Below are positions 4,156 to 50,724 of a DNA stretch of 64,000 nt, piece by piece. The notes under the pieces were generated by a model. It searched no databases. It saw only the letters and a program-made list of their open reading frames with translations, and had not been told where the DNA came from. Origin of the DNA: a virus; IMG/VR virus record IMGVR_UViG_3300025425_000010, positions 1 through 64,000 of that record; one strand, 5' to 3'. The translations under genes and the position numbers were made by a program. How positions within the stretch are numbered: the first letter of the stretch is position 1; the number at the start of each line of letters is the position of its first letter.

Positions 4156-4216
4156 TTTTAATCCTTTACTTTCATTTTATACATAAATAATGGTTAAAAG
4201 TTTTAATATATAAATA

Positions 4217-5143
4217 ATGGATTACTTAAAATCTTTTAAATTGTTCGAAACCGTATTCTTTAAGATGGATATTTTCACTGATAAAATAGAATCGATTTGT
4301 CACAACTTCGATTTTTATTATATCGAACAAAAAAAAATTACAAATAATATTCTATTAAGTATGTGTAAACATAACTACAATGGTATAATGTGTCTACATA
4401 TCGAGGAATTCTATCTAAATAATAATAATGATGAGCTCAAATTACAATTTTATATAAATGAGGAGTATTATCAAGAAAATGAAGTAGAGTTGTTAAAGAA
4501 CATAGATTGGATGGGTGAGATATCCAATTATGAATATCTATCATTCGATGATAAACATATGTTGACGAATGTTGAAAATCCAAATATACGAGGTAAAGGC
4601 GAAAATATAATACCGATATCTGTTAAAGAATATCCAAGTGGTGATACAAAATTCGAAGCGAGAATGATATCAGTAGATTTCAAATGTACGGTAATGGATA
4701 TGTTATTCGTTTTATTTTTCAAACCAGAAGTTTATACAACTGATAAAAAACACTTCAATGATATAGTGAGTAGAATACAGACTGATGAACTGGTTAAAGA
4801 TTTACTAAAATTACATGTAGATAATAGAGGTCTTAATATTAATTGGGAGCCAATTAAATCAATAAATGGGAAAGGTGTGGTATCACACCTAGACATAGAA
4901 CACTTTACTAGTTTATATGTTTCGGAACAAGATGTATATAATATGTTTCCTGGGTTCTTCGATGAATTGTATGAGAATAGTGGTATTGTTTGTAACATAG
5001 GTGTTGTTGATGAAGAGTGTCTAGACTTCTATAATGGATTATACACACCAAGAGAGGAAATGAGTAGAGTGCTCAGTAAACACAATATAGATATTGCTTT
5101 TGAGAATATAATGATTATGAACTACACATCAGCTAAAGACTGA
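4217..5143 (+). CDS. Hypothetical protein with N-terminal tag; last 8 codons supplied by MITE B
   Basis: Starts MDYLKSFKLFE with AATATATA upstream. Removing the MITE restores ...ENIMIIN*. Confidence 0.7.
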   Translation: MDYLKSFKLFETVFFKMDIFTDKIESICHNFDFYYIEQKKITNNILLSMCKHNYNGIMCLHIEEFYLNNNNDELKLQFYINEEYYQENEVELLKNIDWMGEISNYEYLSFDDKHMLTNVENPNIRGKGENIIPISVKEYPSGDTKFEARMISVDFKCTVMDMLFVLFFKPEVYTTDKKHFNDIVSRIQTDELVKDLLKLHVDNRGLNINWEPIKSINGKGVVSHLDIEHFTSLYVSEQDVYNMFPGFFDELYENSGIVCNIGVVDEECLDFYNGLYTPREEMSRVLSKHNIDIAFENIMIMNYTSAKD

Positions 5144-5363
5144 TGTGTTTCTACGTCACAAGCACGATGTAACCATCCACTTTGTGTGACGCTGGGTTTG
5201 TTCCTCAACCCAAAATTTCTTATATTTTTAGCAGCATTCTATATTTAAAGGATTTTAACATTTCTTCAAACCATATATTAAAAGCACCAAGCCTCTTTTT
5301 AAATGGTTATGGTGTCACTTACATCACACAAGCTAAAGACTTGTGTGTTTTACATTCCGTTAT
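5117..5363 (-). mobile_element. IS200/IS605 MITE (copy B): internally deleted tnpB element
   Basis: Left end follows TTTAT. The tnpB-like start MLKSFKYR is joined to the tnpB 3' end. 5117-5238 matches 32752-32873 with 2 mismatches in 122 bp. Right end GTGTAGTTCAT. Confidence 0.85.
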
Positions 5364-5382
5364 ATAAATTAATATATACGAA

Positions 5383-5679
5383 ATGAACAACATTAAATAT
5401 TTTAATAAATCCAATGAAGAATTGTTGGATAAATTCTTACCAAAGAAGAGTATAACCAAGTTGGATGTAGAGAAAACAGGTAATGTTAATGCAGAAACTA
5501 TGAAACATCACGACTATTCATCAACAATAAGATATGCTCTATCCAATATTAATAATGGCGTAATTAATAACCGTGACGAGGTTGTTGGTAAAGTTGTTAC
5601 GTGGATAAATAAAATCACCAATGATTTTAAAAATATAAATAACTCCACGATGTCAAATTCGTATATGGACACTTTTTAG
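5383..5679 (+). CDS. Hypothetical protein with N-terminal tag
   Basis: Starts MNNIKYFNKSNEE, with TAATATATAC upstream. Confidence 0.6.
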   Translation: MNNIKYFNKSNEELLDKFLPKKSITKLDVEKTGNVNAETMKHHDYSSTIRYALSNINNGVINNRDEVVGKVVTWINKITNDFKNINNSTMSNSYMDTF

Positions 5680-29136: not shown

Positions 29137-29610
29137 TTACTTGATTAAATTCTGATCTATTTTGGATATTTCACTTAGAATTGGATTTCTCTGTAATGTT
29201 ATTTCAAATTCCCTAGGAAAATTAAGTCTACTATCTATTGTATGTTGCCATTGAACCATATCATAATTAGCATCTACTTCTACTAGGAATAACTCTTCAT
29301 AATCATTTAACTCTATACCAATTGATTCATACCAAGGCTTTTCGTATAATCTTTCTATATATGATGTGTCTAAATAGTGATTACCAAGTTTATCAACATC
29401 AATATCATCTATTGATTCTACTTGTAGGACACGATATAACTTGAAATCCCCAAAGAATTCGAAGAATTCGTGTTGGAAGAAATAATCTAACTCATCAACA
29501 GCATCTACATAATAATTATGACCAGCGTGATGGTCTTTAGCATGTTCATATGCCCAATCTTTCAATGCCTGTTGTTCTATATGGTTCTCAAAAAATTGAA
29601 GATGTTTCAT
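29137..29610 (-). CDS. Hypothetical protein with N-terminal tag
   Basis: Probable start MKHLQFFE. Confidence 0.65.
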   Translation of the reverse strand: MKHLQFFENHIEQQALKDWAYEHAKDHHAGHNYYVDAVDELDYFFQHEFFEFFGDFKLYRVLQVESIDDIDVDKLGNHYLDTSYIERLYEKPWYESIGIELNDYEELFLVEVDANYDMVQWQHTIDSRLNFPREFEITLQRNPILSEISKIDQNLIK

Positions 29611-29626
29611 ACGTGTGTATATAATT

Positions 29627-29872
29627 TTAGTAATCTGAGAAATAATCTCCCATATCATCATCATCTTCGAAGTCTGATGATGGTATTACGTTCTTTTCGT
29701 GGAAAAATTCGATTAGTAATCGTTCATCGTATTCTGATATGTCCGAAATACTCAGTTCGAAAGTGTATTGGTCCATCATACTCCACATAACTTCTAATTC
29801 ATCTAGGTATTCGATAACACCCTCTTCATCTAAACACTCATCAAGTGAATAATATCTGTATAATCTCTTCAT
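29627..29872 (-). CDS. Acidic hypothetical protein
   Basis: ORF. Confidence 0.6.
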   Translation of the reverse strand: MKRLYRYYSLDECLDEEGVIEYLDELEVMWSMMDQYTFELSISDISEYDERLLIEFFHEKNVIPSSDFEDDDDMGDYFSDY

Positions 29873-29884
29873 AACTCAATCTCC

Positions 29885-30634
29885 TCAATTTTTTTCACGT
29901 AGAAACTCGATAATATCAGTCATTGGTAGTCTTTTTCGGTTATCCTCATCGATGTATCGATTGGTAACTGTCATTTTAACACCGGATTGACCCTCAATAA
30001 GACCTACTCGTATTAGGTTATCATCTACCTTAATAAGTATGTGATCATCCTTCAATGAGATTGGTATTATATCTTTATCTGGATTCTCGTCCCAGTTATC
30101 TATTTCTTTTAAAAAGTGGAAATTTTCTTTTTCCATGAATTTTTGCTTAAACATGTCAATGAACTTGCTTCTTTTTTTCATAACCTTGTCTTTTGGTTGT
30201 CCGAAAACATCTTTGTGCTTGAATCCGATTGTTATGTGGAAATCGTGTTTTTTCAAAGCATATCGGTTTCTGATGGCAGTAAGTTTATCAGATTTACCCA
30301 CAACAAAGTAAGTAGTGTTAGTTCCGTTCGTTGCTGTACCGAGGCCCATAAGTTTAAGATCATCAATTTCATAGGTGAATAACTTACTTACTTGTTCGAC
30401 AAATTCGGACATACCAATCTCTTTACCAAGTGCTACATAGTCACCAGCATTGATTATGGTCATGTGGTGTCCATTTTCATCACGTTTTTGTTGGTTTCCA
30501 ACATATTCGTCATAATCATCACCGAGGTGTTCTTTTAATTCGCTCAAAAATGTTTGTATAAGACTTTTATCGAATTTAATTCCAATATAATTAAATCCTA
30601 TTACGTCTTTAACGTGTGTTAAGTAAGTTACCAT
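29885..30634 (-). CDS. 2H phosphoesterase (RNA-repair type)
   Basis: Two HxT motifs (HMT, HIT); adjacent to the CCA-adding enzyme. Confidence 0.75.
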   Translation of the reverse strand: MVTYLTHVKDVIGFNYIGIKFDKSLIQTFLSELKEHLGDDYDEYVGNQQKRDENGHHMTIINAGDYVALGKEIGMSEFVEQVSKLFTYEIDDLKLMGLGTATNGTNTTYFVVGKSDKLTAIRNRYALKKHDFHITIGFKHKDVFGQPKDKVMKKRSKFIDMFKQKFMEKENFHFLKEIDNWDENPDKDIIPISLKDDHILIKVDDNLIRVGLIEGQSGVKMTVTNRYIDEDNRKRLPMTDIIEFLREKN

Positions 30635-30638
30635 ATTA

Positions 30639-31244
30639 TTATTTATTAGAAATGAAAGTTCGAAAATCGGCAATATTACGTTTGGATATCTCTTGACCAA
30701 GTTCTCTACCCTGTTCCCACCCCTGATCGATGAGTTTTTTACCCCAATTTGTTGGTTGGTATTTTAAGAAATTCTTGTGTAAATCACCAAATCCTTCTAC
30801 TCTAATCCATTCGATTAAGTCAGATTCCTTGATATTCTCTACGTCCAAGTTCTTCTTATTTAGTTCATTTTTAAGTTTAACAGCGTTATCCTCTGTTAGA
30901 TTACTTAATTTTAACAGGAATTCAATCGTATCGGCCGTGTCACCATCAATCTTGTAATTCTTAGTCAGTTTCTTACTGAGACCATTAGTGTCCTCATTTT
31001 TGAATAGGTTAGTAAGACAAACATTAAAACTAGTTGTTTCGATGAGGTCGGTGTTTATGTTTGATCCTGGAAATACAAATTCAAACAATCCGAAATCGGT
31101 AAAATATTGTAAGTACTTGTTGTAATCGTTAGCTTGTACCCATGCCTTTTTCATCTCATCATAAATACGCTCACTGGATAATCCAGTTATCATGTAACCA
31201 TATTTCTTTATAGCTGTTTTGGTATCTCTGTTAATTTCTCCCAT
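30639..31244 (-). CDS. CCA-adding enzyme / poly(A) polymerase family, C-terminal fragment
   Basis: INRDTKTAI..LSSERIYDEMKK..GL...VFP..GKKLI..G..QGRELG continues the class II fold. Confidence 0.8.
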   Translation of the reverse strand: MGEINRDTKTAIKKYGYMITGLSSERIYDEMKKAWVQANDYNKYLQYFTDFGLFEFVFPGSNINTDLIETTSFNVCLTNLFKNEDTNGLSKKLTKNYKIDGDTADTIEFLLKLSNLTEDNAVKLKNELNKKNLDVENIKESDLIEWIRVEGFGDLHKNFLKYQPTNWGKKLIDQGWEQGRELGQEISKRNIADFRTFISNK

Positions 31245-32083
31245 ATTATCTTATCGAGTATTTTTTTATCCTTATGTATTTCATTTTCCCACAAAAATAG
31301 GAATTTTATTTCATTTTCGTTTAGATATGATATTTTTACTTTATCACGTTTTACATTTTTCAATTGCACTTCATTTAATTCATTAAAAAATTCTGTGTTC
31401 CCGTGCCAATAGTCTCCCTGACATTCAATTACAAAATTAAATTGGGGTATAAAGAAATCGAATACAAATTTTTTGAATCTTAATTGTTTTATATATTCAA
31501 TATTCATTTTTTTGAGTGTGTTTTCAACTATTATTTCAATTTTGGTATCTTTTTTAATTTTATTAGCAGCTAATGTCATCCTACCAATTACTTCGTCTTG
31601 TTCATCTTTTGTATATGAATTCCAAATTTTTTTTCGAGTTTTTGATTGATTTAGACTCATTTCATATATCTTTTTTGAGGAATATTTATCTAATCCTTTA
31701 TTCCAAGGGGTCTTACCATACATACCATTATTTTTACCCTTAGTGTCCAAATCTCCATTATTGTGGCGGTTTTTCATAATTTTAGATAATTTAATGGATG
31801 CTTTCTTAATACGTTCACTATTTTTCTTAGTAAGACCTATATTTGGTCCTTTTCTACCATACATACCATTCTTTGTTCCAGAATTTAACCGGCTTTTGAT
31901 AATGTATTTTTGTTCTGGTGAGTGCCTAAGTTTCAATTTATTGATTTTTAGTCGAATTGCTGATTTAGTTCTATGATGAAATTTTTCAACATACTTCCCA
32001 AATAGTTCAGATAATGATAACCCATTAAATTCATAGCACAATCTAAGATAATCTTCTTCCTCTTTGGTCCAATAAATTCTCAT
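31208..32083 (-). CDS. Free-standing homing endonuclease (NUMOD3-like repeats + DUF559/Vsr-like nuclease)
   Basis: NGMYG twice, PWNKGL, VFDFFIP..VIECQGDYWH, FLWE. Confidence 0.8.
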   Translation of the reverse strand: MRIYWTKEEEDYLRLCYEFNGLSLSELFGKYVEKFHHRTKSAIRLKINKLKLRHSPEQKYIIKSRLNSGTKNGMYGRKGPNIGLTKKNSERIKKASIKLSKIMKNRHNNGDLDTKGKNNGMYGKTPWNKGLDKYSSKKIYEMSLNQSKTRKKIWNSYTKDEQDEVIGRMTLAANKIKKDTKIEIIVENTLKKMNIEYIKQLRFKKFVFDFFIPQFNFVIECQGDYWHGNTEFFNELNEVQLKNVKRDKVKISYLNENEIKFLFLWENEIHKDKKILDKIIWEKLTEIPKQL

Positions 32084-32157
32084 ATTTATAAATCATTTCC
32101 TTATATATTAAAATAATATACCAGAAAACCCATTACATACACAATGCCTCTTAATTA

Positions 32158-32751
32158 CTATCTACAAGCAAATCGTAGAGTTCTTAATATTCGAAGGGGG
32201 TCTTCTTCTATTCTAAGTTTTGGATCACCAATCATTCGTATAACTCCATTTTTCAAATCAGTATATCCACCAACAAGGTCTATTATCTTTCGAGTTCTTA
32301 GATCAAAAAACATCCCATTTATGGTCAAATCTCTTCGAGTAACGTCTTCTTCGATAGTAACACCCAGTTTAACCTCAGGGTTTCTACCTTTTGATATATC
32401 TTGTCTGAATGTAGCTATCTCAACACCCTCTGGTTGATCATCTGTGAATACTACAACGACACCAAATGCCTCACCTTGTAGTTGTGTTCTATATCCTTTG
32501 AGAATCGCCATAACTTCATCTGGTAGAGCATCTGTTGCAACGTCAAAGTCTTTGGGGTCATGTCCTGTAATGAAATCTCGTACTGATCCACCTACGAGGT
32601 ATAGATTCTTACCAGCTTTGGTGAATAGTTTCGTAATCTCTTTTATGGAGTTTGGTACAATTTCATAAAGGCCATCAGCCTCGATTGGAATAAGAGCTAC
32701 ATTATTTTCCATAGATTCAACAAATATATGAAAATTATTTATCATCTTCAT
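32158..32751 (-). CDS. CCA-adding enzyme / poly(A) polymerase family, N-terminal catalytic fragment
   Basis: VGGSVRD..DFD, EIATFR, RRDLTIN, EDPLRILR..RF, then a stop codon. Confidence 0.9.
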   Translation of the reverse strand: MKMINNFHIFVESMENNVALIPIEADGLYEIVPNSIKEITKLFTKAGKNLYLVGGSVRDFITGHDPKDFDVATDALPDEVMAILKGYRTQLQGEAFGVVVVFTDDQPEGVEIATFRQDISKGRNPEVKLGVTIEEDVTRRDLTINGMFFDLRTRKIIDLVGGYTDLKNGVIRMIGDPKLRIEEDPLRILRTLRFACR

Positions 32752-32756
32752 ATTAA

Positions 32757-33194
32757 CTACACATCAGCTAAAGGCTGATGTGTTTCTACGTCACAAGCAC
32801 GATGTAACCATCCACTTTGTGTGACGCTGGGTTTGTTCCTCAACCCAAAATTTCTTATATTTTTAGCAGCATTTATATCTCTATCGTGATTGGTTCCACA
32901 TTTACAAGTCCATTCCCGGTCATTTAAAGATAATTCTTTATTGATAACTCCACAATTAGAACACGTTTTACTGGATGGGTCAAATCTACCAATAACGGAT
33001 AGATTTTTACCATACAATTTACATTTATATTCCAACATTGACCTGAAATCAAACCAACCCATATCTTTAGCTCCTTCTGTTTCTATTTTATCTGCTCTAC
33101 GACCATGTTTTATTTTACGAGCATATTCAGATGCTTTAACTAATTTCTCTGGTGATAACTCCTCATATGTCTTTATATATCTTAAATTGTCCAT
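32757..33194 (-). pseudogene. tnpB: Truncated TnpB (Zn finger + RuvC-III) fused to a phage tagged N-terminus; element right end at ~32752
   Basis: WFDFRSMLEYKC, PSSKTCSNCG..REWTC.CG..HDRDINAAKNI. The N-terminal ~40 aa are not TnpB-like. Confidence 0.85.
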
Positions 33195-33943
33195 TTTAAT
33201 TTGTTTATATTTAATTTATCTATTAGTTTGGAAACATCTTTTGGATCCATTCCATAATCAATAAGTATATCTAATTCACTGAATGCATTTTCTATGTGAG
33301 AAGTTTCGTCATTTTTATATGAGTTTATAGACAGATAATGTATTCTTCTACCGAAAATATTAGCTAGTGTTGATTTGAATTTCTTAGCTTCTTTTCGGCT
33401 GCTGAATTTAACAGAACCATATTCACCGTCAAAGATATCGATTCCACTTAGATTGAAATGGTCAATACCAACTTTAAAATCGATTGTAAATGTGTTTATG
33501 TTATGATATCCCAATTCTAAATCATCCATTAGAAATTCAGCATCATCACCTTTATAATCATCAAATAGGTGATTTATATATTTTTCGGTTGGAATAAGTA
33601 ATAGATGGAAATATAGATTGATATATTCTCTAAAATCATCTTCTGTATCATATTGTTCAACGGTCATATCCTTATCAAATATAATTATGAAATTAAAATT
33701 ACCGTTATCTTCGAAGTCATAATCTGCCAATCCGTCCGGGATGGTAACTCCTAATGTACCGAATTGTGCATATTTTTTCCTAAGTTTTTCTGATTCTACT
33801 AGTACTTTTTTCTTAATTTCTATGTATGAATGTGAAATCAATCTAGCGCCTCTTTCTTGATGTCCAAGTTCTCGAAGTTGCCTACCAGCTTTCCTATAAA
33901 TACCAGAACTAATTTCTTCGTTGAATTTTCTAAGGTGTTTCAT
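33182..33943 (-). CDS. Hypothetical protein with N-terminal tag
   Basis: Probable start MKHLRKFNEE. Confidence 0.7.
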   Translation of the reverse strand: MKHLRKFNEEISSGIYRKAGRQLRELGHQERGARLISHSYIEIKKKVLVESEKLRKKYAQFGTLGVTIPDGLADYDFEDNGNFNFIIIFDKDMTVEQYDTEDDFREYINLYFHLLLIPTEKYINHLFDDYKGDDAEFLMDDLELGYHNINTFTIDFKVGIDHFNLSGIDIFDGEYGSVKFSSRKEAKKFKSTLANIFGRRIHYLSINSYKNDETSHIENAFSELDILIDYGMDPKDVSKLIDKLNINKLKWTI

Positions 33944-33962
33944 GTTTTCAATATCTATTTTC

Positions 33963-33974
33963 AATATATATATT
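33963..33974. promoter_or_regulatory. Palindromic bidirectional late-promoter candidate AATATATATATT
   Basis: Lies between two divergent tagged genes starting at 33943 and 33978. Confidence 0.6.
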
Positions 33975-33977
33975 AAT

Positions 33978-34217
33978 ATGAGATTCTTAAAAACGTTTGA
34001 AGGCTTTAAAGTAAATAATATAGAACACAGTGATATCATAAAGGTTATTAAAAACAGAGGTCGTTTGTATGCAAGTTCGATAAAGGATTTATCAGATGCT
34101 GACCCGAAAGAGCCATTGGTACCTGTGAGTGTTGATAATGATGGACTTATAACTGTTTTATACGATAGTGGTGAGTATGAGGTTAGTCTTGATAATGTGG
34201 ATAGGATTGAATTTTAA
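33978..34217 (+). CDS. Small hypothetical protein with N-terminal tag
   Basis: Probable start MRFLKTFE. Confidence 0.7.
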   Translation: MRFLKTFEGFKVNNIEHSDIIKVIKNRGRLYASSIKDLSDADPKEPLVPVSVDNDGLITVLYDSGEYEVSLDNVDRIEF

Positions 34218-34228
34218 ATAATAATAAT

Positions 34229-34597
34229 ATGGAACACCTGAGAAAATTTAATGAAGATAATGGTATATCTGAAAGAAACTCGTTATTATTCTCCGATTGA
34301 GATGAATTGATTTCTGAGGATTTCGATAAGATACATAGTAGTGGTAGAAATGTATATATGGTCGATACTGATTATAAAATAAAAGTAGTTCCTGATTATA
34401 AAGCACTGAAAAATTTCACAGTTTTTGGTGGGAAAAATGTAGAACCAGCTGAACTATTTAAATATTTACTTTTTGTTGAGAGTAGTAAAATTGAGAATAT
34501 GCAGAAGATGATTGATAGTGTAATGGATATTAAGAAAGCTTATGATGATAAAATCAGAGAACAGCTTAATCACGTATTATACCTATCACAACAATAA
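34229..34597 (+). pseudogene. Tagged hypothetical protein with an in-frame TGA at 34298-34300
   Basis: MEHLRKFNE...LFSD*DELISED is in frame with ORF 34307-34597. Confidence 0.6.
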
Positions 34598-34665: not shown

Positions 34666-36555
34666 TTAATTTGTTAATAATTCAAATTTCATTTTACCAC
34701 AATCATATATTCTTAGGTGTCCTGACTCTTTCATATATTGTGATTCCGTCATACTCACTTCTAATTTTAATTTGGATTTCCGGTATGAGGATTTGTGTTT
34801 TCTTTTCCCATTAATTATGTAGGAATAATCTGGTTTGGATTCAGATATTTTATCGAATCCCAGTTTTTTATATAGGTTACCGTTACTCCAGCTCATATCG
34901 GCATAACTTATAATACGTTCAGCTTTATTCATATCTATGAAATGTTTGAGTAGTTTTGATGCACCACCAACTATAGTATGTTCCGATTTATTACAGAAAC
35001 GTGAAAGATTCCACCCACTTTCTAACATTTTTTTGCGGCCTTCTGATTTATCGAATGTCATTATACTAACCAACTCACCATCACAAATTAACCCCAGTGA
35101 TTTCTTAATAGTCTTGTTATATCCCTGTATATGGTTGTTATTCAAGAATTCACGTATGATATTGTTATCGAATAATTCGATAATATCACATTTCCTGGCA
35201 AATATTCGGGTTGTTGTCTTGATTAACATATTGGATATCATTGACTTTTGTATAACATTCTTATATATCCACTCATCTTCCCATATATGTATTATGCGTA
35301 TGTCCCTATCTAGAAAATGTTTAGTCTTTTTTTGGTGATAGTTCCTGTCCTTATTCGCCTCTGAATGCCAGTATAATCCATTATACTCAAAACCTATTTT
35401 AAGTGCTGGTAGGTAAATATCTATCTCCAAACCATCACGATATGATTGTATGATTTCACCGTCATAAATTGATGATATAAATTCAAATAGTTCCTGTTCT
35501 CTGATGGATATAGTATTCTTAATAGGATGGCACACCGTACACATTGGTAAATTTTGTTTTTTTCTACTGAAATAGTTATCAGTGTGTATTTCAAAATTGT
35601 GTTCCTTATCACAACGAAAAAGAGAAATTCTACTTCCTATATAGGAAATATATACATCATCACTACCTATTATGGTATTTTCTTTACGGAAAATATCACT
35701 TGATGTGTTGTTTGTTGTGCCAAATTTTTCTACATTATTTACTTCTCGTATATTTTTAATATCGTTGTTCTGTATTGGATATTCAAATCCATACCTTTCT
35801 AGATTTGTTACACGTATCCGTTTCTTTATGATGTCTGACTTTAATGGGTTATCTACATTATAATTACTCAGTAGTGTTTCTTTGGATTTTTTCTGTATCT
35901 CATTGGATAATAGTGGTGATCTATATCCATACCTTTCTAAATTGGTTTCAATAATCTTTTGCTTGACCTCATCGGATTTTGATGGGGTTTCAAAACCATA
36001 CCTTTCTAGATTAGTTTTCTTAGATTTATCTCTAACTACATCAGATTGTAGTGACCACTCAACACCATATTTACCCAGGTTAGTTTTTTTCACTTTGTCT
36101 TTATATTCATCTGTTTTAGTGAAATTATCAACACCATACCTTTCTAGATTAGTTTCAATTATTTTATCCTTCACCATATCACTCTGAAACGAGTGACTAA
36201 CTCCATACCTTTCTACATTTGTATTTATTCGATTTTTTTTAACAGATTCTAATTGTGATATGTTGTTAGCACCAGTAGTTTCCCTGAGGATTTGTCTTCT
36301 TTTAACATCACCACATTTATGAGAACAACAGAACAAACCCCCTTTTAAAATGCTTCTATTGTATAATTTGTATGTGATGTCTACATCATTCTCACAAATA
36401 TCACACTTGGCTCTTATAATTGAATTTGATCCGTGTGTGAGTTCTTCGACTTTAACTTCGATAATATCACCAGAAACAACAATATATCCGATATTATTAA
36501 AATGTTTTTTGTTTTGTGGGAATATCTTAATGTGTATTGTTTTGGTTAATATCAT
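34666..36555 (-). CDS. KYG-repeat homing-endonuclease-like protein, copy 2
   Basis: Same architecture as 1786-3729. Confidence 0.8.
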   Translation of the reverse strand: MILTKTIHIKIFPQNKKHFNNIGYIVVSGDIIEVKVEELTHGSNSIIRAKCDICENDVDITYKLYNRSILKGGLFCCSHKCGDVKRRQILRETTGANNISQLESVKKNRINTNVERYGVSHSFQSDMVKDKIIETNLERYGVDNFTKTDEYKDKVKKTNLGKYGVEWSLQSDVVRDKSKKTNLERYGFETPSKSDEVKQKIIETNLERYGYRSPLLSNEIQKKSKETLLSNYNVDNPLKSDIIKKRIRVTNLERYGFEYPIQNNDIKNIREVNNVEKFGTTNNTSSDIFRKENTIIGSDDVYISYIGSRISLFRCDKEHNFEIHTDNYFSRKKQNLPMCTVCHPIKNTISIREQELFEFISSIYDGEIIQSYRDGLEIDIYLPALKIGFEYNGLYWHSEANKDRNYHQKKTKHFLDRDIRIIHIWEDEWIYKNVIQKSMISNMLIKTTTRIFARKCDIIELFDNNIIREFLNNNHIQGYNKTIKKSLGLICDGELVSIMTFDKSEGRKKMLESGWNLSRFCNKSEHTIVGGASKLLKHFIDMNKAERIISYADMSWSNGNLYKKLGFDKISESKPDYSYIINGKRKHKSSYRKSKLKLEVSMTESQYMKESGHLRIYDCGKMKFELLTN

Positions 36556-36666: not shown

Positions 36667-38553
36667 ATGATATTAGATGAATATGTGAAAGTAGAGTTGG
36701 TGAATAGGAACTATAAAAAATTATCAAGTAAGTATGGTCTCAAAGATGTATCAGTTGGTGATATTGTTGAAATACCAATTAATAAATTATCTAAATCATC
36801 ACACTACATGGTTAATGTATCCTGTGATTATTGTGATATTAATTTAGAGGTTCCGTTTAAACGGTATAATAAGAGTACTGAGGTTATTGATAAATACTCA
36901 TGTTCGAATAAGGATTGCTCAAACCAAAAGATTAAAGATGTCTGTCAAGAAAAATATGGTGTCGATAATCCCTTCCAATCCAAAAATGTTAAAAAGAAGA
37001 TTAAAGAAACCATGTTGTATAAATATGGAGTTGAACACCCAATGTTTTTAGAAGAAACAAAAGGGAAAATAAAAGATACTTGTTTGGAAAGGTATGGTGT
37101 TGATAACTATACTAAAACCGATGAATATAAAGTAAAAACAAAGGAAACAAATTTGGAGAGATATGGTGTGGAGTGGGCTATGCAATCGGATGTTATCAAA
37201 GAACGATCCAAGAAGTCCAGTCTGAAGATATATGGAGTAGACCACCCACACAAATCGAAAGTGGTAAGGGATAAATTTATAGAAACCAACATGAATAATT
37301 GTGGGTTTCCTACAAATCTAATGTGTCCAGATAATATTGAACAAGTTAAACATACAAACTTGGATAGATATGGGGTTGAGTATCCACTACAGTCGGAAGA
37401 AATTAAAGATAAAATAAAAATTACTTGTTTAGAAAGATATGGGGTTGATAATCCATTAAAAAGTAAATTGGTTAGAGATAAAATGTATAATACAAATATT
37501 GAAAGATATGGTAATAAATATGTAAGTATGAGTCCTGTTGTACGTAGTAATTTTAAAATGTGTTGTGATGATAATTATATTAAATACCTCGGTAATAATT
37601 ATTCTTCATTTAAATGTTATAAAGGTCATAATTTCAAAATATCAACAAATAATTACTACGGTAGGATGAGTTATGGAACTGTACTTTGTACTGAATGTTA
37701 TCCAATCGGTGATACTGTTTCTATAAATGAGCAAGAAGTTTATAATTATATCAAAGAAATTTATGATGGTGAAATCATACAATCATATCGTGATGGTTTG
37801 GAGATAGATATTTACCTACCAGCACTTAAAATAGGTTTTGAGTATAATGGATTATACTGGCATTCGGATAAATACAAAGATAAAAACTACCATTCGGATA
37901 AAACCAAGTTTTTCAAAGAACGAGGAATACGTATAATACACATCTGGGAAGATGATTGTGTGTTGAAACGTAATATTATAAAGAGTCAAATATCCAATAT
38001 GGTAGGTTTAGTTGTTAATAAGGTATATGGTAGGACGTGTGTAATAAAGGAGTTAGTGGATATTAAGATGTGTAGGAAGTTTTTGGATGATAACCATATA
38101 CAAGGATTTGTACCATCCACACTGAAACTTGGACTATTTTATAGTGGTGAATTGGTTAGTATAATGACATTTGATAAGTTTGAAGGGCGGAAGAAAATGG
38201 AAGAAAATGGGTGGACATTATCCCGGTTTTGTTCTAAAATTGATTATAGTGTAATTGGTGGGTTTACAAAATTACTCAATAATTTTATAAAAATATATAA
38301 CCCAATTAGAATTGTGAGTTATTCTGATAATGATTGGAGTCTGGGTGGTATATATGAAACATCTGGTTTCTCAAAAGTGTCTGATGTACCCATAGACTAT
38401 AAATACATAATAGATGGTGTTCGTGTGAATAAGTCAAAATTTAGAAAATCTAACTTACCAGGGGATTTATCGGAATCTCAGTACATGTCTAGTAATGGTA
38501 TTCTACGAGTCTATAATTGTGGTAAAAGTAAATATGAGATGATATTATCTTAA
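36667..38553 (+). CDS. KYG-repeat homing-endonuclease-like protein, copy 3
   Basis: Same architecture; divergently oriented from copy 2. Confidence 0.8.
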   Translation: MILDEYVKVELVNRNYKKLSSKYGLKDVSVGDIVEIPINKLSKSSHYMVNVSCDYCDINLEVPFKRYNKSTEVIDKYSCSNKDCSNQKIKDVCQEKYGVDNPFQSKNVKKKIKETMLYKYGVEHPMFLEETKGKIKDTCLERYGVDNYTKTDEYKVKTKETNLERYGVEWAMQSDVIKERSKKSSLKIYGVDHPHKSKVVRDKFIETNMNNCGFPTNLMCPDNIEQVKHTNLDRYGVEYPLQSEEIKDKIKITCLERYGVDNPLKSKLVRDKMYNTNIERYGNKYVSMSPVVRSNFKMCCDDNYIKYLGNNYSSFKCYKGHNFKISTNNYYGRMSYGTVLCTECYPIGDTVSINEQEVYNYIKEIYDGEIIQSYRDGLEIDIYLPALKIGFEYNGLYWHSDKYKDKNYHSDKTKFFKERGIRIIHIWEDDCVLKRNIIKSQISNMVGLVVNKVYGRTCVIKELVDIKMCRKFLDDNHIQGFVPSTLKLGLFYSGELVSIMTFDKFEGRKKMEENGWTLSRFCSKIDYSVIGGFTKLLNNFIKIYNPIRIVSYSDNDWSLGGIYETSGFSKVSDVPIDYKYIIDGVRVNKSKFRKSNLPGDLSESQYMSSNGILRVYNCGKSKYEMILS

Positions 38554-38612: not shown

Positions 38613-40061
38613 TTAGTGAGTTTCTTCGAGTACGATTTGTTTAACACCCTTCTTGGAGTTATGTGAGATTGGCATCTCAACACCCACAGAGATCATAAGT
38701 ACTCGACCATTTACTTTGGAAAGGTCCAAAGTGTCAGTATATCCGTCACTCAAAACTACAGTGTTGAACTCGTTGTAGTGTTCAACTACGTAATCTATTG
38801 AAGGTTGAATTACAGTACCACCAAGACCTTTAATCTTCATAGTTTCAAGTTGTCTTTTCTTCTTGAACTTCTGTACCCATTTGACATCGGTATCACCTTG
38901 GATGAAGTTAATTTCGATATCGTTTTGGTACACATAATTCAATACTCGTTCAAAAGTACCTTGACCACCCATTGATCCTGATGTATCAAGTATAACGTTG
39001 ATAGTAGTCTTTACTTTACGGTTACCTTTAAGACCATTGATACCTCTTCTGTTAATTTTGGTAATAGTCTTATGTTTCTTGGTACCGAAGATTTGGTTAG
39101 AGATGGTACGTTTGATTTCTTTCAAGTAATCTTTACGTTTCTTCTGAAGTCTATTCAGAGTTGTTTCGATATTACCGGAAGCCAATCCACGAGCTGCTAA
39201 TCGATCCATTACATCACGTACCATTGTCTCTCTCATTTCTTCTGGAACTTCGTCAGTCATGTGTGAATCGAGGTATTGTCCTTCATTCTTCTCCATGTCT
39301 GAGAAGATTTGTTCTTTCGACCAAGTATCCATTGAACCATTACCTGATGGATTCTGACCATAAGGACCATATGATGGTTTTCCTTTGGAGTCTTTACCAC
39401 CCTCGTTACCAGTTCCGTTACAGTCTGGACATGGTGATCCACTACCTTCTCCTTGTCCTTCACCACCTTCTCCTTGTCCTTCACCTTTTTCGCCAGAATC
39501 AGATGGTTTCTCACCACTACCATCACAAGTTTCACACTTGGCTTGATCCTCATCTTTTTCGTTCTGTTCTTGTTCCCACTTGTCTTTTTCTTCTCTCAAC
39601 CAAGTGTAAAGTTCTTCAAAGATAAGTTTACCAGTATATTCTTTTGGTAGAAACAAAGCCATGTTCTTACCTGATTCATCTTTTGGAACTTCAACGAAGT
39701 TGTGTGAGATATCTTCCCAAATGATGTGATTGATAATCATATCCTGAGCGATGTTCGACAACTTGTGATCATACTGACCAGTAATCGTTCTTCGTGGGTG
39801 TCTAAACAATAAGTGGAAATCTTCGTGTAATGTTACGAAATTAACTTCTTTCTGTGACATGTTCTGTAAGAACTTCGGTGAGTAGTAGAAGTTCATACCT
39901 TTTGTAGTAACATTCACACCACATGTTGGTATGCTGTTAGTTTCGTGAAAATTGACATTCAAGTTAAACTCACCGTAGTAAGGTAGATTGACTTTCGTAT
40001 CAATTAACATTTCTTGAATCGATGTTAAAAGTTTTTCGTGGATGTTTTTGTTTATAATCAT
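38613..40061 (-). CDS. VWA-like / putative metallopeptidase (DUF2201-type), MoxR partner
   Basis: LHEDFH (HExxH), N.AQD..IN, CxxCxGxG insert, ILDTSGSMG (MIDAS), GGT, LSDG. TATCTTTG box at 40095-40102. Confidence 0.85.
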   Translation of the reverse strand: MIINKNIHEKLLTSIQEMLIDTKVNLPYYGEFNLNVNFHETNSIPTCGVNVTTKGMNFYYSPKFLQNMSQKEVNFVTLHEDFHLLFRHPRRTITGQYDHKLSNIAQDMIINHIIWEDISHNFVEVPKDESGKNMALFLPKEYTGKLIFEELYTWLREEKDKWEQEQNEKDEDQAKCETCDGSGEKPSDSGEKGEGQGEGGEGQGEGSGSPCPDCNGTGNEGGKDSKGKPSYGPYGQNPSGNGSMDTWSKEQIFSDMEKNEGQYLDSHMTDEVPEEMRETMVRDVMDRLAARGLASGNIETTLNRLQKKRKDYLKEIKRTISNQIFGTKKHKTITKINRRGINGLKGNRKVKTTINVILDTSGSMGGQGTFERVLNYVYQNDIEINFIQGDTDVKWVQKFKKKRQLETMKIKGLGGTVIQPSIDYVVEHYNEFNTVVLSDGYTDTLDLSKVNGRVLMISVGVEMPISHNSKKGVKQIVLEETH

Positions 40062-40187
40062 ATCTTTCTTATTATGTTTTATTGATTTGTTTAACAAAGA
40101 TAGTTAATATTACCAACTATCATAATTTATATACAACTATTACGGAGAATTTATATTTAATATATATTAAAAAGTAATTATGTTAAT

Positions 40188-41870
40188 ATGATATTTGATA
40201 ATAGTATTGAAATTAAAATAACTAAGCGTAATATTGAACACTTCTCTATGTACTACAGAGATATAAAATTAAGGGATATAATTGATGTTTCTCCGGAAAA
40301 TTTACAGAAAAATAGTAATATAAGAATAAATGTTTTATGTGATGTGTGTGGTATCTCTAATAACATTAAGAACCAGGCGTATACTAAGAATATAAATTCA
40401 TGTAAATCTAATCCAATTTATACATGTGATAAATGTTCACATATTAAAAATAAAGCCAGTTGTTTGGAGGTTTATGGTGAGGACCATTATTCTAAAACTG
40501 ATGAGTGGAAGGATCGGACAAGAAAGACTTGTTTGGAAAAATATGGTGAGGATCATTATTCTAAAACTGATGAGTGGTCTAAGAGATTTGAAGAGACTTG
40601 TTTGGAGAAGTATGGGGTTGAAAACCCATTTATGGATTCTAAAAAAATAAGAGAATCTTTCAATAGTAAGTATGGAGTTGACCACCCATCACAGGTTACT
40701 GAAATACATGAACGTATTAAGAGTAGTAATAAAACATCAACCGGGTATGAGAGTCCGTTATCCTCCCCAGAGATAAGGAGTCGTATTAATACTACAATGT
40801 TGCGTAAGTATGGTTCTATAATACCATATAAGTCGGAAGATATTAGGTCAAGGTTAGTGGTGTGTAAGAATAAAAATTATTTAAATTATATAAGTGATAA
40901 TATATCACTGTTTAAGTGTGATAATGGATGTGATCACAATTTTGAAATGGAATCTTATATGTATCATAATCGTTTACGTGGTGGTGTTCATTTATGTACA
41001 GTATGTAACCCAATTGGGGATTCGGTGTCAATAAAGGAGAAGGAGTTGTTTGAGTATATATCATCAATATATAGTGGTGAAATTATAAGATCATATCGAG
41101 ATGGTTTGGAGATTGATATCTATTTGCCGGAATTGAATATTGGATTTGAATTTAATGGATTGTACTGGCACTCTGAAAAATATAAAGATAAAAATTACCA
41201 CCTAGATAAAACTAACCATTTCAAGGAAAAGGGTATTCGTATAATACACATCTGGGAAGATGATTGGGTGAATAAGACAGATATACTTAAAAGCCAAATA
41301 TCTAATATGGTTGGTGAGACAAATACTAGGATATTTGCTAGAAAATGTGAAGTCCGTGTGGTAGGTAGTAAATTATCTAATATTTTTCTATATGATAACC
41401 ACATACAGGGTGGTGATAAGAGTGTTGTTAAATTGGGTTTGTTTTGTGATGGTGATATGGTATCTATTATGACATTTAATAAATTCGAGGGTAGAAACAA
41501 GATGGGTTTTGGTGAATGGAACCTGTCGAGGTTTTGTAATGTGAAAAATTATTCGGTTGTTGGTGGATCGTCTAAATTATTATCATATTTCATAAAGGAG
41601 AATGTAGTTTCCCGTATAATAAGTTATGCTGATGCTGATTGGTCAGTTGGTAATTTATATAAGGTAATGTGTTTTGAAAAATCTCATCATAGTAACCCAG
41701 ATTATAAATATGTTATTGATGGTGTTCGTAATCACAAACAGAATTATAAGAAGAAGAACCTTGGTATATCAGGTCAAGCCATAACCGAGTCAGTATATAT
41801 GAGAAGTAAAGGTTATTACCGAATATGGGATTGTGGGAAAATAAAATTTACAAAACATGTATCTACATAA
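40188..41870 (+). CDS. KYG-repeat homing-endonuclease-like protein, copy 4
   Basis: Same architecture. Confidence 0.8.
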   Translation: MIFDNSIEIKITKRNIEHFSMYYRDIKLRDIIDVSPENLQKNSNIRINVLCDVCGISNNIKNQAYTKNINSCKSNPIYTCDKCSHIKNKASCLEVYGEDHYSKTDEWKDRTRKTCLEKYGEDHYSKTDEWSKRFEETCLEKYGVENPFMDSKKIRESFNSKYGVDHPSQVTEIHERIKSSNKTSTGYESPLSSPEIRSRINTTMLRKYGSIIPYKSEDIRSRLVVCKNKNYLNYISDNISLFKCDNGCDHNFEMESYMYHNRLRGGVHLCTVCNPIGDSVSIKEKELFEYISSIYSGEIIRSYRDGLEIDIYLPELNIGFEFNGLYWHSEKYKDKNYHLDKTNHFKEKGIRIIHIWEDDWVNKTDILKSQISNMVGETNTRIFARKCEVRVVGSKLSNIFLYDNHIQGGDKSVVKLGLFCDGDMVSIMTFNKFEGRNKMGFGEWNLSRFCNVKNYSVVGGSSKLLSYFIKENVVSRIISYADADWSVGNLYKVMCFEKSHHSNPDYKYVIDGVRNHKQNYKKKNLGISGQAITESVYMRSKGYYRIWDCGKIKFTKHVST

Positions 41871-46860: not shown

Positions 46861-48630
46861 TCACCATTTCTTAATAAAATCAGACAATTCTTCAATATAG
46901 ATGTCTTTGGGTTTCTTCTTTTTCATTTCTACCAGTTCAATCTTCTTCAGTTTGATATTTTCCTTTATCTTATCATAGTTCTCTTTGGTTAAGTTATGTA
47001 TAGGAATTCGTAAAAGATAGTCATATGATCCATCTATTTTATCTAACTTGTTTTTTGATATCATCTTCTCAATATCTACCTTCTTTCGGTTGTTAACAAT
47101 TATATCACCTTTGATTATCAATGAAATGAATTTAGACCTATTATCCATAACCCTCAACTCACTAGTTAATTCACTAACGATGTTTTTCTTACGAACATCA
47201 TACCATTTTAATCGAAAATCTACGAAATATGTGATAATATCTTTAACATTCTCGAATATAAGTAATTTACCATGTTCATCTAGTGTATTGTATAATTCGT
47301 GAAAACTTTCTTCTAATTTGAAAACTTTAATCAATTTTATATCAGATAATTCGGCCAAATCTTTACGGCTCATCTTTATAACATAGTTGATATTATCCTT
47401 ACAATTATCTTCATAAGATAGTATAATTCCATCAGATATAAGCTTTTCTAAGATATTTTCATATTTTTCATAAGTCATAGAGGGTGGTAACTCTGTTATA
47501 TTCAATGTGGTCGTGTTAACTTTTTGATATGTACCTCTAACAATCCATGATTTATGTTTCTCTGGATCATTTTCATATGTACCTTTAAACCCATTAATAC
47601 TTGGAGGTATATTCTTAACCTTACCTTTTTTCAAGTAGTTTAAGCAAGCCTTAGACACATCAATTATATCACGATTTAGTATCATTGATTTAAAACCAAC
47701 GGCTATACCACCCCCACCATTAACGAGAATCATTGGTATTATAGGTAGTAAGTATTTTGGCTCAATTTTCTCACCTTCTTCTATCTGATTATCTAATAGA
47801 TTATTATCTCTGTATATTTTTCGATAATTACCATTGAGCTTAGTACCGATATATCTCGGTGCTCCAGCATCAGGTGATCTCAATGAACCAAATTGTCCAT
47901 CTTCGTCCAGTAAGGGAGCATTGTTTTTAAAACTCTGAGCCATGCTGGTGATGGCACTAGATAGTGATGAATTATGAGTTATTATCATTGATTTTTTACC
48001 AATGATGAAATTGTGATGTTCATCAACTGTTATATCATAAAATTTTTCTGGTTTATTTAATTTTATTCTGTTAATTTTATTTATTCGGCATAGGTTTTCT
48101 TTCTTGAAATTTTCAATATTATCAGTTTCTATCAGATTTTTGGCCTCCACCCATCCTCTATCCGTTAGAAATGGGTGATTTGATGTACATGATATTATTT
48201 CACCGGATTCTAATTCAATTTCATATTTATCATTGGTTATATTCCCTACCCTTGGGGAGTGTCCCCTACCTTCACAAAATATTTTCCTCACCTCATCATA
48301 GCAAGTTACATTAAATGATTGGTTTGGGTAATTCTCAAACCAATCACCAATAGTTATATATGTACCATCAGTTAATAATATCTCAGTTGAAAAATCTAAA
48401 CAATCACCATGATGGTACATACAATCACTGGCTACTTTACCAGCCAACTGAAATATCTTGAGTGGTTTCTCCAACCCTGATTTCCACACTTTTGATGAGA
48501 TGTATATTATCTTTCTCTGTACAGGCTTTAATCCATCGACCATTGATGCAATGGCTCTTGATTCGAGAGAATACATTGCAAATTCTTTATATTCCTCACT
48601 TAAGAAGTTTTCTATTTTCTTATTTTTCAT
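46861..48630 (-). CDS. Type IIA topoisomerase subunit A (T4 gp52/GyrA-like) containing a mini-intein
   Basis: DGLKPVQRK, YHHGD, GQFGS, APRY (catalytic Tyr), LVNG..GIAVGF, ITELP. Confidence 0.93.
   Translation of the reverse strand: MKNKKIENFLSEEYKEFAMYSLESRAIASMVDGLKPVQRKIIYISSKVWKSGLEKPLKIFQLAGKVASDCMYHHGDCLDFSTEILLTDGTYITIGDWFENYPNQSFNVTCYDEVRKIFCEGRGHSPRVGNITNDKYEIELESGEIISCTSNHPFLTDRGWVEAKNLIETDNIENFKKENLCRINKINRIKLNKPEKFYDITVDEHHNFIIGKKSMIITHNSSLSSAITSMAQSFKNNAPLLDEDGQFGSLRSPDAGAPRYIGTKLNGNYRKIYRDNNLLDNQIEEGEKIEPKYLLPIIPMILVNGGGGIAVGFKSMILNRDIIDVSKACLNYLKKGKVKNIPPSINGFKGTYENDPEKHKSWIVRGTYQKVNTTTLNITELPPSMTYEKYENILEKLISDGIILSYEDNCKDNINYVIKMSRKDLAELSDIKLIKVFKLEESFHELYNTLDEHGKLLIFENVKDIITYFVDFRLKWYDVRKKNIVSELTSELRVMDNRSKFISLIIKGDIIVNNRKKVDIEKMISKNKLDKIDGSYDYLLRIPIHNLTKENYDKIKENIKLKKIELVEMKKKKPKDIYIEELSDFIKKW
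47971..48402 (-). mobile_element. Mini-intein (144 aa, no endonuclease domain)
   Basis: Starts CL after HHGD; TSNHPF (block B), FYDITV (block F); ends THN followed by Ser. Confidence 0.92.
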
Positions 48631-48685: not shown

Positions 48686-50512
48686 ATGTTACTTAATTTA
48701 AAAATGAAAATCATTGTAAATCCGAATTCAAGGATATATTATAATTCTATTGGTTATGAGTGTGTTAATTATGAGGAGATTGAAATCAATATCATTGAAT
48801 TACCGAAAGGGTCTAATATTGAAATTGATGTATGTTGTGATATATGTAATTTTGGTAAAAAATTAAAATATAATAGTTATTATAAAAATACTAATGGAAA
48901 TACTACTATTTATACTTGTAAGAAATGTTCACATATAAAATCGAAAAAAACCTGTTTAGAACGATATGGTGATGAAAATTATACAAATAAGGAACAATCG
49001 AAAAAAACCTGTTTAGAACGATATGGTGATGAAAATTATACAAATAGGAAACAATCGAAAAAAACCTGTTTAGAACGATATGGTGTGGATAATGTCTCTA
49101 AATTGGATAATGTGAAAAAAAAGAAGATAGAATCGAATCTCATTAATTGGGGTGTTGAGAATGTTTTCCAATCAAATATCATAAAACTTAAAATATACAA
49201 TACTATACAAGACAAATATGGAACAGATACATATATAAAATCATTGGATTTTAAACAGAAATATATGAAATTCTGTGATAAACATGGAGTTGATCATTAT
49301 TCACAAACAGATGAATTCAAACGGAAGTTCGAAAAAACATGTTTATATAGATGGGGGTATAAGACTAATTTAATGAATGATGATATTAAAAAAAGAATTG
49401 CTTTGACAAATACAATGAAATATGGATTTGAAAATCACATGATGAATACAACTCAATCATTTAAGGTAGCACAGACCATGATAAATAAGAGGAAAACTTA
49501 TTATGAATCGTTGGGGTATGAAATGATTGATTATAATTTCGAAAGTAGAAATTATACATTAATAAAAAAAGATTGTGGTCATGAGTTTAATATAACACAT
49601 GATTTATTTAGGAGTCGTATAAAATATGGAAATAATTCTTGTTTACAATGTTATCCAAAAAATGATATGTCTTCTATTAAAGAGAAAAAATTGGGGGAAT
49701 TTATCAGTACTATTTCAGATAACGTAATTTATAATTCGAGGAAAATATTAAATGGTAAAGAATTGGATGCTTATTTACCAAATAATGGATTGGCTATTGA
49801 GTTTAATGGACTTTATTGGCATTCTGATGTTTTTAAGGGAAAATCATATCATTATGATAAAACTATATCATGTAATGATATAGGGGTTGATCTCATGCAT
49901 ATTTGGGAAGATGATTGGGATAATAGAACTGAAATCGTTAAATCAATAATAAGATATAGAACTGGTAATATTCATAATAAGATATATGCGAGGAAATGTG
50001 AAATTATTGAAATATCAAATAAAGAGAGTAACGTTTTTTTAAATAAAAATCATATACAGGGTGGTGTGAATGCTGGTAAATGTATATCTCTTAAATATAA
50101 GGGTGATATTGTATCTGTCATGACTTTTGGAAAAAGGAATATAAATTCAAAGCCAAACACTGAATTATTGAGATTTTGTAATAGGATAAATTGTAATGTT
50201 GTTGGATCATCTTCTAAAATGTTTAAACATTTTATAAAGAATAATGATTTTTCGAAAATAATTTCGTACTCGGATATTTCACTATTTAATGGGGGTGTAT
50301 ATGAGAAATTGGGATTTGAAAATTGTGGAAAGACTTCCTTGAATTATTATTGGACAGATTTATATAAAAGGTATCATAGGTTCAATTTTAATAAGAAAAA
50401 ATTAATAAAAAGGGGATATGATAAAAACAAAACGGAAAATGAAATAATGTCTTCATTGGGATATTATAAAATATGGTCTTGTGGTCAAATAAGATGGGAA
50501 TATAGTAAATGA
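48686..50512 (+). CDS. KYG-repeat homing-endonuclease-like protein, copy 5
   Basis: Same architecture; near-exact 57-bp internal tandem repeat. Confidence 0.8.
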   Translation: MLLNLKMKIIVNPNSRIYYNSIGYECVNYEEIEINIIELPKGSNIEIDVCCDICNFGKKLKYNSYYKNTNGNTTIYTCKKCSHIKSKKTCLERYGDENYTNKEQSKKTCLERYGDENYTNRKQSKKTCLERYGVDNVSKLDNVKKKKIESNLINWGVENVFQSNIIKLKIYNTIQDKYGTDTYIKSLDFKQKYMKFCDKHGVDHYSQTDEFKRKFEKTCLYRWGYKTNLMNDDIKKRIALTNTMKYGFENHMMNTTQSFKVAQTMINKRKTYYESLGYEMIDYNFESRNYTLIKKDCGHEFNITHDLFRSRIKYGNNSCLQCYPKNDMSSIKEKKLGEFISTISDNVIYNSRKILNGKELDAYLPNNGLAIEFNGLYWHSDVFKGKSYHYDKTISCNDIGVDLMHIWEDDWDNRTEIVKSIIRYRTGNIHNKIYARKCEIIEISNKESNVFLNKNHIQGGVNAGKCISLKYKGDIVSVMTFGKRNINSKPNTELLRFCNRINCNVVGSSSKMFKHFIKNNDFSKIISYSDISLFNGGVYEKLGFENCGKTSLNYYWTDLYKRYHRFNFNKKKLIKRGYDKNKTENEIMSSLGYYKIWSCGQIRWEYSK

Positions 50513-50724
50513 ACTACAGTATTGTGTATAATGGACTACAACATTATGAATCGTGTGACTTTTTCGGAGGTGATACTGGATTTAAAAAAAGGAAAATTCT
50601 AGATAATATAAAAAGAGAATATTGTAATAATAATAATATACGATTGGAGGTAATATCATATTATTATAATAGCATTAAAAGAATTAAAGAAAAATTAATT
50701 AAGATATTTAATGAAAAAAATTGA
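50509..50724 (+). pseudogene. Remnant C-terminus of a DUF559/Vsr-like endonuclease
   Basis: YNGLQHY...FFGG...DNIKREYC..NNIRL.VISY. Confidence 0.6.

Follow-up and report, generated by a model that had tools for sequence, protein, structure and literature searches.

We analyzed a window of 64,000 nucleotides (nt), positions 1-64,000 of the 73.7-kb IMG/VR virus record IMGVR_UViG_3300025425_000010 (estimated completeness, 45%), in which the cca gene, coding for a predicted CCA-adding enzyme (tRNA nucleotidyltransferase), is divided into two open reading frames (ORFs) by a free-standing homing endonuclease gene (HEG). On the minus strand the order is cca N-half, spacer, HEG, and cca C-half, and the locus comprises the following features:

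32158..32751, minus strand: CCA-adding enzyme N-half, 197 amino acids (aa), head and first neck helices, with motifs A-E
32084..32157, minus strand: spacer of 74 nt with a AATATATA motif, a Shine-Dalgarno-like AAGGAAA, and a predicted hairpin
31208..32083, minus strand: free-standing Vsr-like HEG, 291 aa, PD-(D/E)XK-derived
31208..31244, minus strand: overlap of 37 nt between the HEG tail and the start of the C-half, in different frames
30639..31244, minus strand: CCA-adding enzyme C-half, 201 aa, remainder of the neck, body, and tail (tRNA-binding region)
29885..30634, minus strand: 2H phosphoesterase (2H-SAK; PF22547, E 3.6e-18), a context gene outside the split

The ORF coordinates and sequence details of the original prediction, which had been made from the letters of the window, were all correct when rechecked. 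As it had claimed, the N-half ends in ...LRTLRFACR followed by the stops TAG TAA. The approximately 75 nt that it had placed before the HEG measured 74 nt, with AATATATA at 32102-32109, 18 nt ahead of the HEG ATG, and the 37-nt overlap of the HEG with the C-half was confirmed at 31208-31244. Within this overlap, the HEG tail (...IIWEKLTEIPKQL, then a stop) is read in another frame as the start of the C-half, MGEINRDTKTAI, the ATG of which sits in the ATA-TGG (Ile-Trp) codons of the HEG. The 2H-SAK gene begins 4 nt past the C-half stop. The foreign ORF between the two cca ORFs measures 876 nt, and the enzyme is thus not encoded as the single polypeptide expected of class II CCA enzymes. The window sequence was present in many salt-lake metagenome runs according to the listing of public runs. 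Contigs of four further salt-lake runs (2017-2020) bridged both junctions with 0 differences, which excludes mis-assembly; the arrangement is not an assembly artefact. None of the contigs in these four runs skipped the HEG, a result that, coming from contigs, cannot prove the absence of a HEG-less allele.

Pfam and PHROGs placed the two halves on successive stretches of one protein. The N-half matched PF01743 with 113 bits (cut-off 23) and the C-half matched PF12627 with 32.6 bits (cut-off 22), while on phrog_2244 (phage tRNA nucleotidyltransferase) the N-half covered positions 3-147 and the C-half positions 152-385. They are therefore consecutive parts of one enzyme. Among PDB sequences, the N-half matched class II CCA enzymes (E 1e-31), and E. 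coli poly(A) polymerase scored as well on it as the CCA enzymes did. No match to the C-half was found among PDB sequences with phmmer, and a scan of viral contigs with the C-half as sole query found nothing; its identity follows from Pfam, PHROGs, and its alignment to unsplit relatives. Motifs A (GGxVRD...DxD) and B (RRD) were present, with G54, G55, R58, D59, D68, D70, R139, R140, and D141 invariant in our alignment A2. Motifs D (EDxxR, here EDPLR) and E (RxxRF, here RTLRF) lie at the C-terminus of the N-half, with E183, D184, R187, R190, and R193 equally invariant. Judged by sequence, the combined halves belong to the class II CCA-adding enzyme family (PF01743 plus PF12627), and CCA addition itself is predicted.

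Unsplit cca genes in the same gene order (a paralogue family of about 250-285 aa, cca, 2H phosphoesterase, small acidic ORF) were found in the related loci L006 (406 aa), L002 (391 aa), L005, and many more. The N-half is 68% identical to the unsplit protein of L006, and the C-half is 36% and 62% identical to the matching parts of those of L002 and L006, respectively. The original prediction had proposed an alignment with uninterrupted homologues as a check. When this was done, the window halves aligned end to end with the L006 and L002 proteins and were collinear across the break, at which about 4 residues are swapped (YNFS or YNHI in the relatives, MGE in the window). The relatives read ...RF(S/A)(C/S)R-YN(F/H)x where the N-half stops at ...RFACR, and the C-half begins with three new residues, M-G-E, before it rejoins its homologues at I-(D/N)-x-x-T. 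The number of residues added at the break is 0 on the N-half and 3 on the C-half. At the nucleotide level, the match to L006 breaks off exactly at 32159 and is picked up again at 31172.

We located the break on an AlphaFold2 model of the unsplit L006 protein (predicted local distance difference test score, 89.9), a model that aligned with full-length class II CCA-adding enzymes in the PDB (384-440 alignment columns). Helix 184-195, which carries motif E, ends just before the break, and helix 202-210 follows it. The insertion would thus lie in the turn that follows the motif E helix, where PF01743 and PF12627 meet. In CCA-adding enzymes, the catalytic core (motifs A-E) is in the head and neck, while tRNA binding is in the body and tail (PMC8563995). 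The break therefore parts a complete catalytic piece from the tRNA-binding piece.

The original prediction had stated that neither an intron nor an intein was involved, and this was borne out. No match to a group I or II intron was found with Rfam over 29500-34500 at E values up to 10, nor in the related loci L020, L060, and L089 at E values up to 5. The non-ORF sequence amounts to 74 nt 5' of the HEG ORF and none 3' of it, which leaves no room for an intron core. No Int-N or Int-C parts were found, and the halves align to unsplit proteins without intein-like extra residues. We nevertheless considered that an unrecognized intron core overlapping the HEG ORF, or a protein ligation, could restore a single chain. 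Vsr-like HEGs do occur in recA group I introns (PMC2677866), and RNA-level reads with this sequence are absent from the listed public runs. Apart from the Rfam scans and the lack of intein blocks, this explanation has to contend with an ORF that runs 37 nt into the C-half, and with the presence at the same site of two unrelated types of ORF (the Vsr-like HEG and a 349-aa ORF in L020, described below) with equally little spare sequence. We regard it as highly improbable.

The identity of the HEG was apparent from distant similarities. Against Pfam it scored below the cut-off with both Vsr (18.1 bits, cut-off 27) and PvuRts1I_N; its PHROG matches carry the names homing or HNH endonuclease, and its match to Vsr in the PDB had an E value of 0.005. 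The last 110 residues of the HEG could be aligned with E. coli Vsr (1cw0), D209, Y225/W226, H227, and D247 being the equivalents of Vsr D51, F67/W68, H69, and D97. The position of Vsr F62 is occupied by a Glu (E220, in FVIECQGDYWH), and an invariant Glu at the Vsr Phe62 position is a feature of the Vsr-like HEG family (Dassa et al. 2009, PMC2677866). The C-terminal part is therefore assigned as a Vsr-type nuclease on the basis of this alignment, and cleavage is predicted. The N-terminal part, with a subthreshold Myb/SANT-like match and two NGMYGK repeats recognized by eye, appears to be DNA-binding. Identity to HEGs located within or next to cca genes elsewhere was 47-57%, the best match (57%) being L115.

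This led to the question of how often such genes accompany cca. In scans covering IMG/VR and JGI metagenomes, 19 of the 23 closest full-length HEG relatives among metagenome contigs (L112-L134) were in or beside a cca-type gene. HEGs occupied the same cca site in L060/L088/L122, L121, and L128, those of L060/L088, L121, and L128 being 37-47% identical to the window HEG. L129 has the same N-half end followed by a HEG, the rest being truncated by the contig end. The reading that a free-standing endonuclease splits the gene was thus upheld, the same HEG family and the same site recurring in at least four other phage lineages. In the split relatives, the N-half ends in RF(F/S)SRF(N/S), the HEG tail reads (T/K)IWE(K/R)LQxK, and the C-half starts with MG(E/K)IT, its ATG lying within the ATA-TGG codons of the HEG tail. 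A ATATGGGA(G/A)A(A/G)ATTA stretch is common to the window, L060, L121, and L128. Other HEGs, L089 and L113-L117 among them, lie just upstream of an intact cca gene, the start of which they overlap by 4-11 nt; they end in IILNKL or a similar sequence that has no internal ATG. A start codon for the C-half is thus present exactly where the C-half must be made, since the intragenic tails hold the ATG and the upstream-type tails do not. The proposal that the endonuclease supplies a new ATG stood as well, this design being found again in the other phages.

The mobility of the cassette was evident from the comparison of L060 with L088. The HEG, about 360 nt upstream of it, and about 55 nt downstream of it are 100% identical between the two, while the remaining cca sequence is 75-93% identical at the nucleotide level and the neighboring genes are unalignable. 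This identical tract, which concerns relatives and not the window copy, has the appearance of classic recent homing with co-conversion of the flanks. In trees, a well-supported cca clade comprises the same members as HEG clade A (L128, L124, L121, L129, and L060/L088), and pairwise HEG divergence tracks N-half divergence. Because the clades match and the divergences track, the three-gene unit has long been co-inherited in clade A. The window HEG falls in clade B together with upstream-type copies, while the window cca N-half groups with the unsplit L006. The window split is therefore most simply explained by an independent entry into the same site. Residues 73-144 of the window protein, and those from 253 on, clearly resemble L006, while residues from about 140 to 250 are no closer to L006 than to other lineages, a pattern suggestive of, though not decisive for, an imported tract around the break.

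As a tentative proposal, which we hold to be rather less probable than its negation, the Vsr-like HEG lineage may be a dedicated parasite of phage cca genes that switches between a harmless position just ahead of cca and the intragenic position after motif E, in the latter case yielding clasp-less catalytic and tRNA-binding subunits, the second of which would be expressed from signals of the cassette. The HEG relatives in L119, L126, and L133 lie just downstream of a nucleotidyltransferase gene that is shorter (242-254 aa) and of another type (FKxYEVGGKVRDE...). The lineage may target a wider set of nucleotidyltransferase genes.

To see how common the split is, we examined N-half relatives, namely the best 120 clusters of short (108-345 aa) proteins. 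About 70 of these 120 clusters end 3 residues or less from motif E, most of them reading ...RAIRMACR(L/I/V), and the clusters ending at motif E keep their motifs intact. The arrangement itself was as described, but it is less unusual than the original prediction had implied, since phage cca genes in metagenomes are commonly split after motif E (about 70 of these 120 clusters). In IMG/VR, most relatives are unsplit, and 5 of the 80 loci fetched with an N-half alignment are split at this site. A second nuclease-like ORF, unrelated to the HEG, probably occupies this site in many other phages. It measures 349 aa in L020/L021, where it splits the RAIRMACR-type gene, and the C-half of that gene (MAIIETK) starts from the last 14 nt of this ORF. 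The 349-aa ORF of L020 has an H-N-H-like motif, recognized by eye only; no nuclease family was assigned to it by Pfam or PHROGs. In a further class of short relatives, the end lies about 40 residues beyond motif E (...EEIKKSFSYTNI); the cca N-pieces P0018, P0020, P0039, P0052, P0056, and P0083 (228-234 aa) all end in ...ERIWEEIKKSFSYTNI, about 40 residues past motif E, which suggests a third recurrent break point.

We consider it likely that the HEG cassette split the cca gene and that the halves are made as two unspliced polypeptides, most likely reassembling into a working CCA-adding enzyme. A mobile Vsr-like HEG cassette would have inserted into a phage class II cca gene after the motif E helix. 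At its 5' end, the cassette would bring the stops TAG TAA for the N-half and, behind them, a short leader that contains a promoter-like motif and a hairpin covering the HEG start; at its 3' end, it would bring the C-half ATG, embedded in the HEG tail within the Ile-Trp codons. Without RNA or protein splicing, this would give a catalytic piece of 197 aa and a tRNA-binding piece of 201 aa, which would rejoin noncovalently via the neck helical bundle. We infer that each piece is transcribed and translated, that the two associate, and that the complex has CCA-adding activity.

The original prediction had named relaxed selection on the halves, together with a lack of joint activity, as an observation that would speak against it. 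Among split alleles, the ratio of nonsynonymous to synonymous substitution rates (dN/dS) was 0.13-0.26 for the N-halves and 0.10-0.24 for the C-halves, indicating purifying selection on both (0.10-0.26 overall). Furthermore, of the 67 alignment columns conserved in 27 or more of 29 unsplit homologues, the window halves retain 64, and the substitutions in the other three are L to V, V to I, and E to N. These values bear on the possibility that the cassette recently inactivated the cca gene and that the halves are open merely because the pseudogene is young. Such a recent, independent insertion would fit the facts that the other members of the window HEG clade lie outside intact cca genes and that the window cca is nearest to the unsplit L006. 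The sequences from the four runs of 2017-2020 are identical and thus silent on selection; moreover, cca is not universal in phages, and its loss may be tolerated. However, the C-half start codon is built into every intragenic HEG tail and absent from the intergenic ones (IILNKL etc.), which is hard to explain if the C-half is dispensable. The split clade has diverged to 60-76% N-half protein identity with both halves intact and dN/dS values of 0.13-0.26, the window halves retain the 64 of 67 conserved positions, and the same site is where about 70 of the 120 best clusters of short N-half relatives stop, with their motifs intact. We therefore think a recent knock-out unlikely.

A slightly less probable explanation still is a division of labor without reassembly, in which the N-half alone would act as a minimal nucleotidyltransferase, perhaps with altered specificity, and the C-half would be a separate, dispensable or loose tRNA-binding factor. 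It would agree with the presence of all motifs A-E in the N-half, with the assignment of the catalytic core to head and neck and of tRNA binding to body and tail (PMC8563995), and with the lack of clasp peptides added at the break. Yet the C-halves were intact and under purifying selection beside the N-halves in every split allele seen. Since the break cuts the neck helical region instead of passing between independent domains, a lone N-half would also be expected to expose the helix that packs against the C-half.

Several observations weigh against reassembly into a working enzyme, which we nevertheless favor. There is no RNA run among the public runs listed as holding the sequence. The window allele is without a close split relative, its N-half being nearest to the unsplit L006 and its HEG to HEGs upstream of intact cca genes. 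The invasion of the window gene may therefore be recent, and the dN/dS values come from other split alleles. The low dN/dS may itself be partly older than the split, because the HEG of L060/L088 is younger than the divergence of the halves. In contrast to Aeh1 NrdA and the flexible-loop cca splits, no interaction peptides are contributed by this break, and the two pieces would have to associate through their native interface alone. Finally, a second, intact cca gene elsewhere in the genome is possible, because the contig represents only about 45% of it.

The spacer was examined for signals that could serve expression of the cassette. AATATATA is enriched in the window (35 observed versus 18.9 expected). 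In at least 10 cases, the distance from its end to the start codon of an ORF is exactly 4 nt, examples being the copies at 302, 4205, 5371, 14046, 14960, 15462, 59749, and 63795 (plus strand) and 62196 (minus strand). This placement suggests that AATATATA may be a phage promoter giving nearly leaderless mRNAs. Its role in the spacer is uncertain, the distance to the HEG ATG being 18 nt there versus mostly 4 nt elsewhere. Directly adjacent to the HEG ATG is the T4 late-promoter word TATAAATA; with 19 copies in the window versus 18 expected, it is not enriched, and it was dropped as a candidate promoter. The spacer hairpin (about 32080-32144) pairs AAGGAAA and reaches the HEG AUG (z = -2.34; 1 of 200 shuffles folded as well). 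Similar hairpins were predicted over the HEG start in L060 and L129 and upstream of it in L128; folding of the HEG start region in L121 gave no comparable hairpin. The spacer hairpin resembles the translational hairpins of mobE and of fractured genes and may have a regulatory role.

Genes in pieces fractured by HEGs are already known as a kind, and the addition made here is the host enzyme, CCA-adding enzyme. The original prediction had cited the splitting of nrdA by mobE in Aeromonas phage Aeh1 as a precedent. This precedent is real (PMC3045599), but a closer one is the intein-less SbcD-like split by the Vsr-like HEG family (PMC2677866). In Aeh1 (nrdA-a/mobE/nrdA-b), assembly of NrdA from two polypeptides was shown by experiment (Friedrich et al. 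2007; Crona et al. 2011, PMC3045599). As in the window, a free-standing HEG splits an enzyme gene without an intron or intein. The Aeh1 HEG is of the HNH type and its host gene encodes ribonucleotide reductase, whereas the window has a Vsr-like HEG in cca; assembly in Aeh1 needs insert-derived peptides, which are absent here, and function was proven there, while here it is predicted.

In the published fractured-gene model, the invader supplies an upstream stop and a downstream Met, with an overlap of 6-69 bp and an upstream hairpin (Dassa et al. 2009, PMC2677866). The stop-and-Met part of this model fits the window locus exactly. The HEG 3' end likewise overlaps the downstream half (by 37 nt here), and a hairpin lies upstream of, and reaches, the HEG start. 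At the SbcD-like locus, as in the window, a free-standing HEG of the same Vsr-type family, with the extra conserved Glu, lies between the halves of a phage enzyme; the inserted residues at the break number 25 and 9 there, in contrast with 0 and 3 in the window. Most of the loci described by Dassa et al. carry split inteins, unlike the window locus, and their hosts are enzymes of DNA synthesis or repair instead of a CCA-adding enzyme; the word "nucleotidyltransferase" is not mentioned in the searched text. No paper describing a split cca gene was found in full-text searches that paired homing endonucleases with tRNA nucleotidyltransferases or CCA-adding enzymes.

A different split of the same enzyme was found in L110 (IMGVR_UViG_3300033069_001351, 3492-5512), which shares with the window the phage group, the gene order, and a free-standing HEG between two cca ORFs. 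There, a GIY-YIG/NUMOD endonuclease lies in the catalytic head domain, between ATFRSD (ATFRxD) and GRNP, and both pieces carry extensions of 24-34 residues, whereas the window split falls after motif E, lacks extensions, and involves a Vsr-like HEG. In the pieces split in the head domain (L110; proteins P0002 and P0003), the extension is 34 residues long on the N-piece and 24 on the C-piece (MKDWKEIANELFPEEFEEFIKKFS). The extensions of L110 may act as interaction peptides.

The surroundings of the split gene deserve some comments. The series of cca, 2H-SAK (PF22547), and a small acidic ORF also occurs in L002, L005, L006, L020, and L110, and the conserved pairing of the CCA-adding enzyme with the 2H phosphoesterase suggests a tRNA 3'-end repair module. 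A transfer-messenger RNA gene and a cluster of at least 5 tRNA genes lie within 3 kb of the split cca gene in L060 (740-1097, 2957-3028, and 7051-7843), the phage whose split cca design is closest to that of the window. A search of the 73.7-kb record of the window found no tRNA genes. On the other side, an ORF of 145 aa (32757-33194, minus strand) abuts the cca start. Its C-terminal two thirds correspond to the TNB domain of TnpB/Cas12f (PF07282, E 8e-24), while its N-terminus resembles the phage's own MxxLxYIKTYEE-type leader; nothing corresponds to it at that place in the unsplit L006. A perfect hairpin, CACATCAGC-TAAAG-GCTGATGTG, is present at 32761-32783, and in other salt-lake runs the region 32680-33080 has a depth of 10-20 times that of its flanks and many loose ends, as for a multicopy IS200/IS605-type end. 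Large (494-647 aa) homing or HNH endonuclease-like genes crowd the window (1786-3729, 34666-36555, 36667-38553, 38613-40097, 40188-41870, and 48686-50512). Those other than 36667-38553 match phrog_3339, phrog_559, and phrog_1314, with E values down to 1e-126, and the one at 48686-50512 lies between divergently oriented topoisomerase II genes (46861-48630 and 50711-52555).

For annotation, the present data imply that many metagenomic "poly(A) polymerase" ORFs of about 190 aa are probably N-halves of split cca genes. The boundary between the core and the tRNA-binding region of CCA enzymes has been probed by enzymologists with chimeras. The natural break described here, right after motif E, parts the catalytic core from the tRNA-binding region, and, if the two-subunit form is active, it would represent a natural, portable split point for class II CCA-adding enzymes. 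With this locus, a tRNA-maturation enzyme joins the few enzymes that phages retain in split form following HEG invasion, and the locus offers a clean comparative example of an invader that brings the stop, the start, and probably the regulation that keep the host gene usable.

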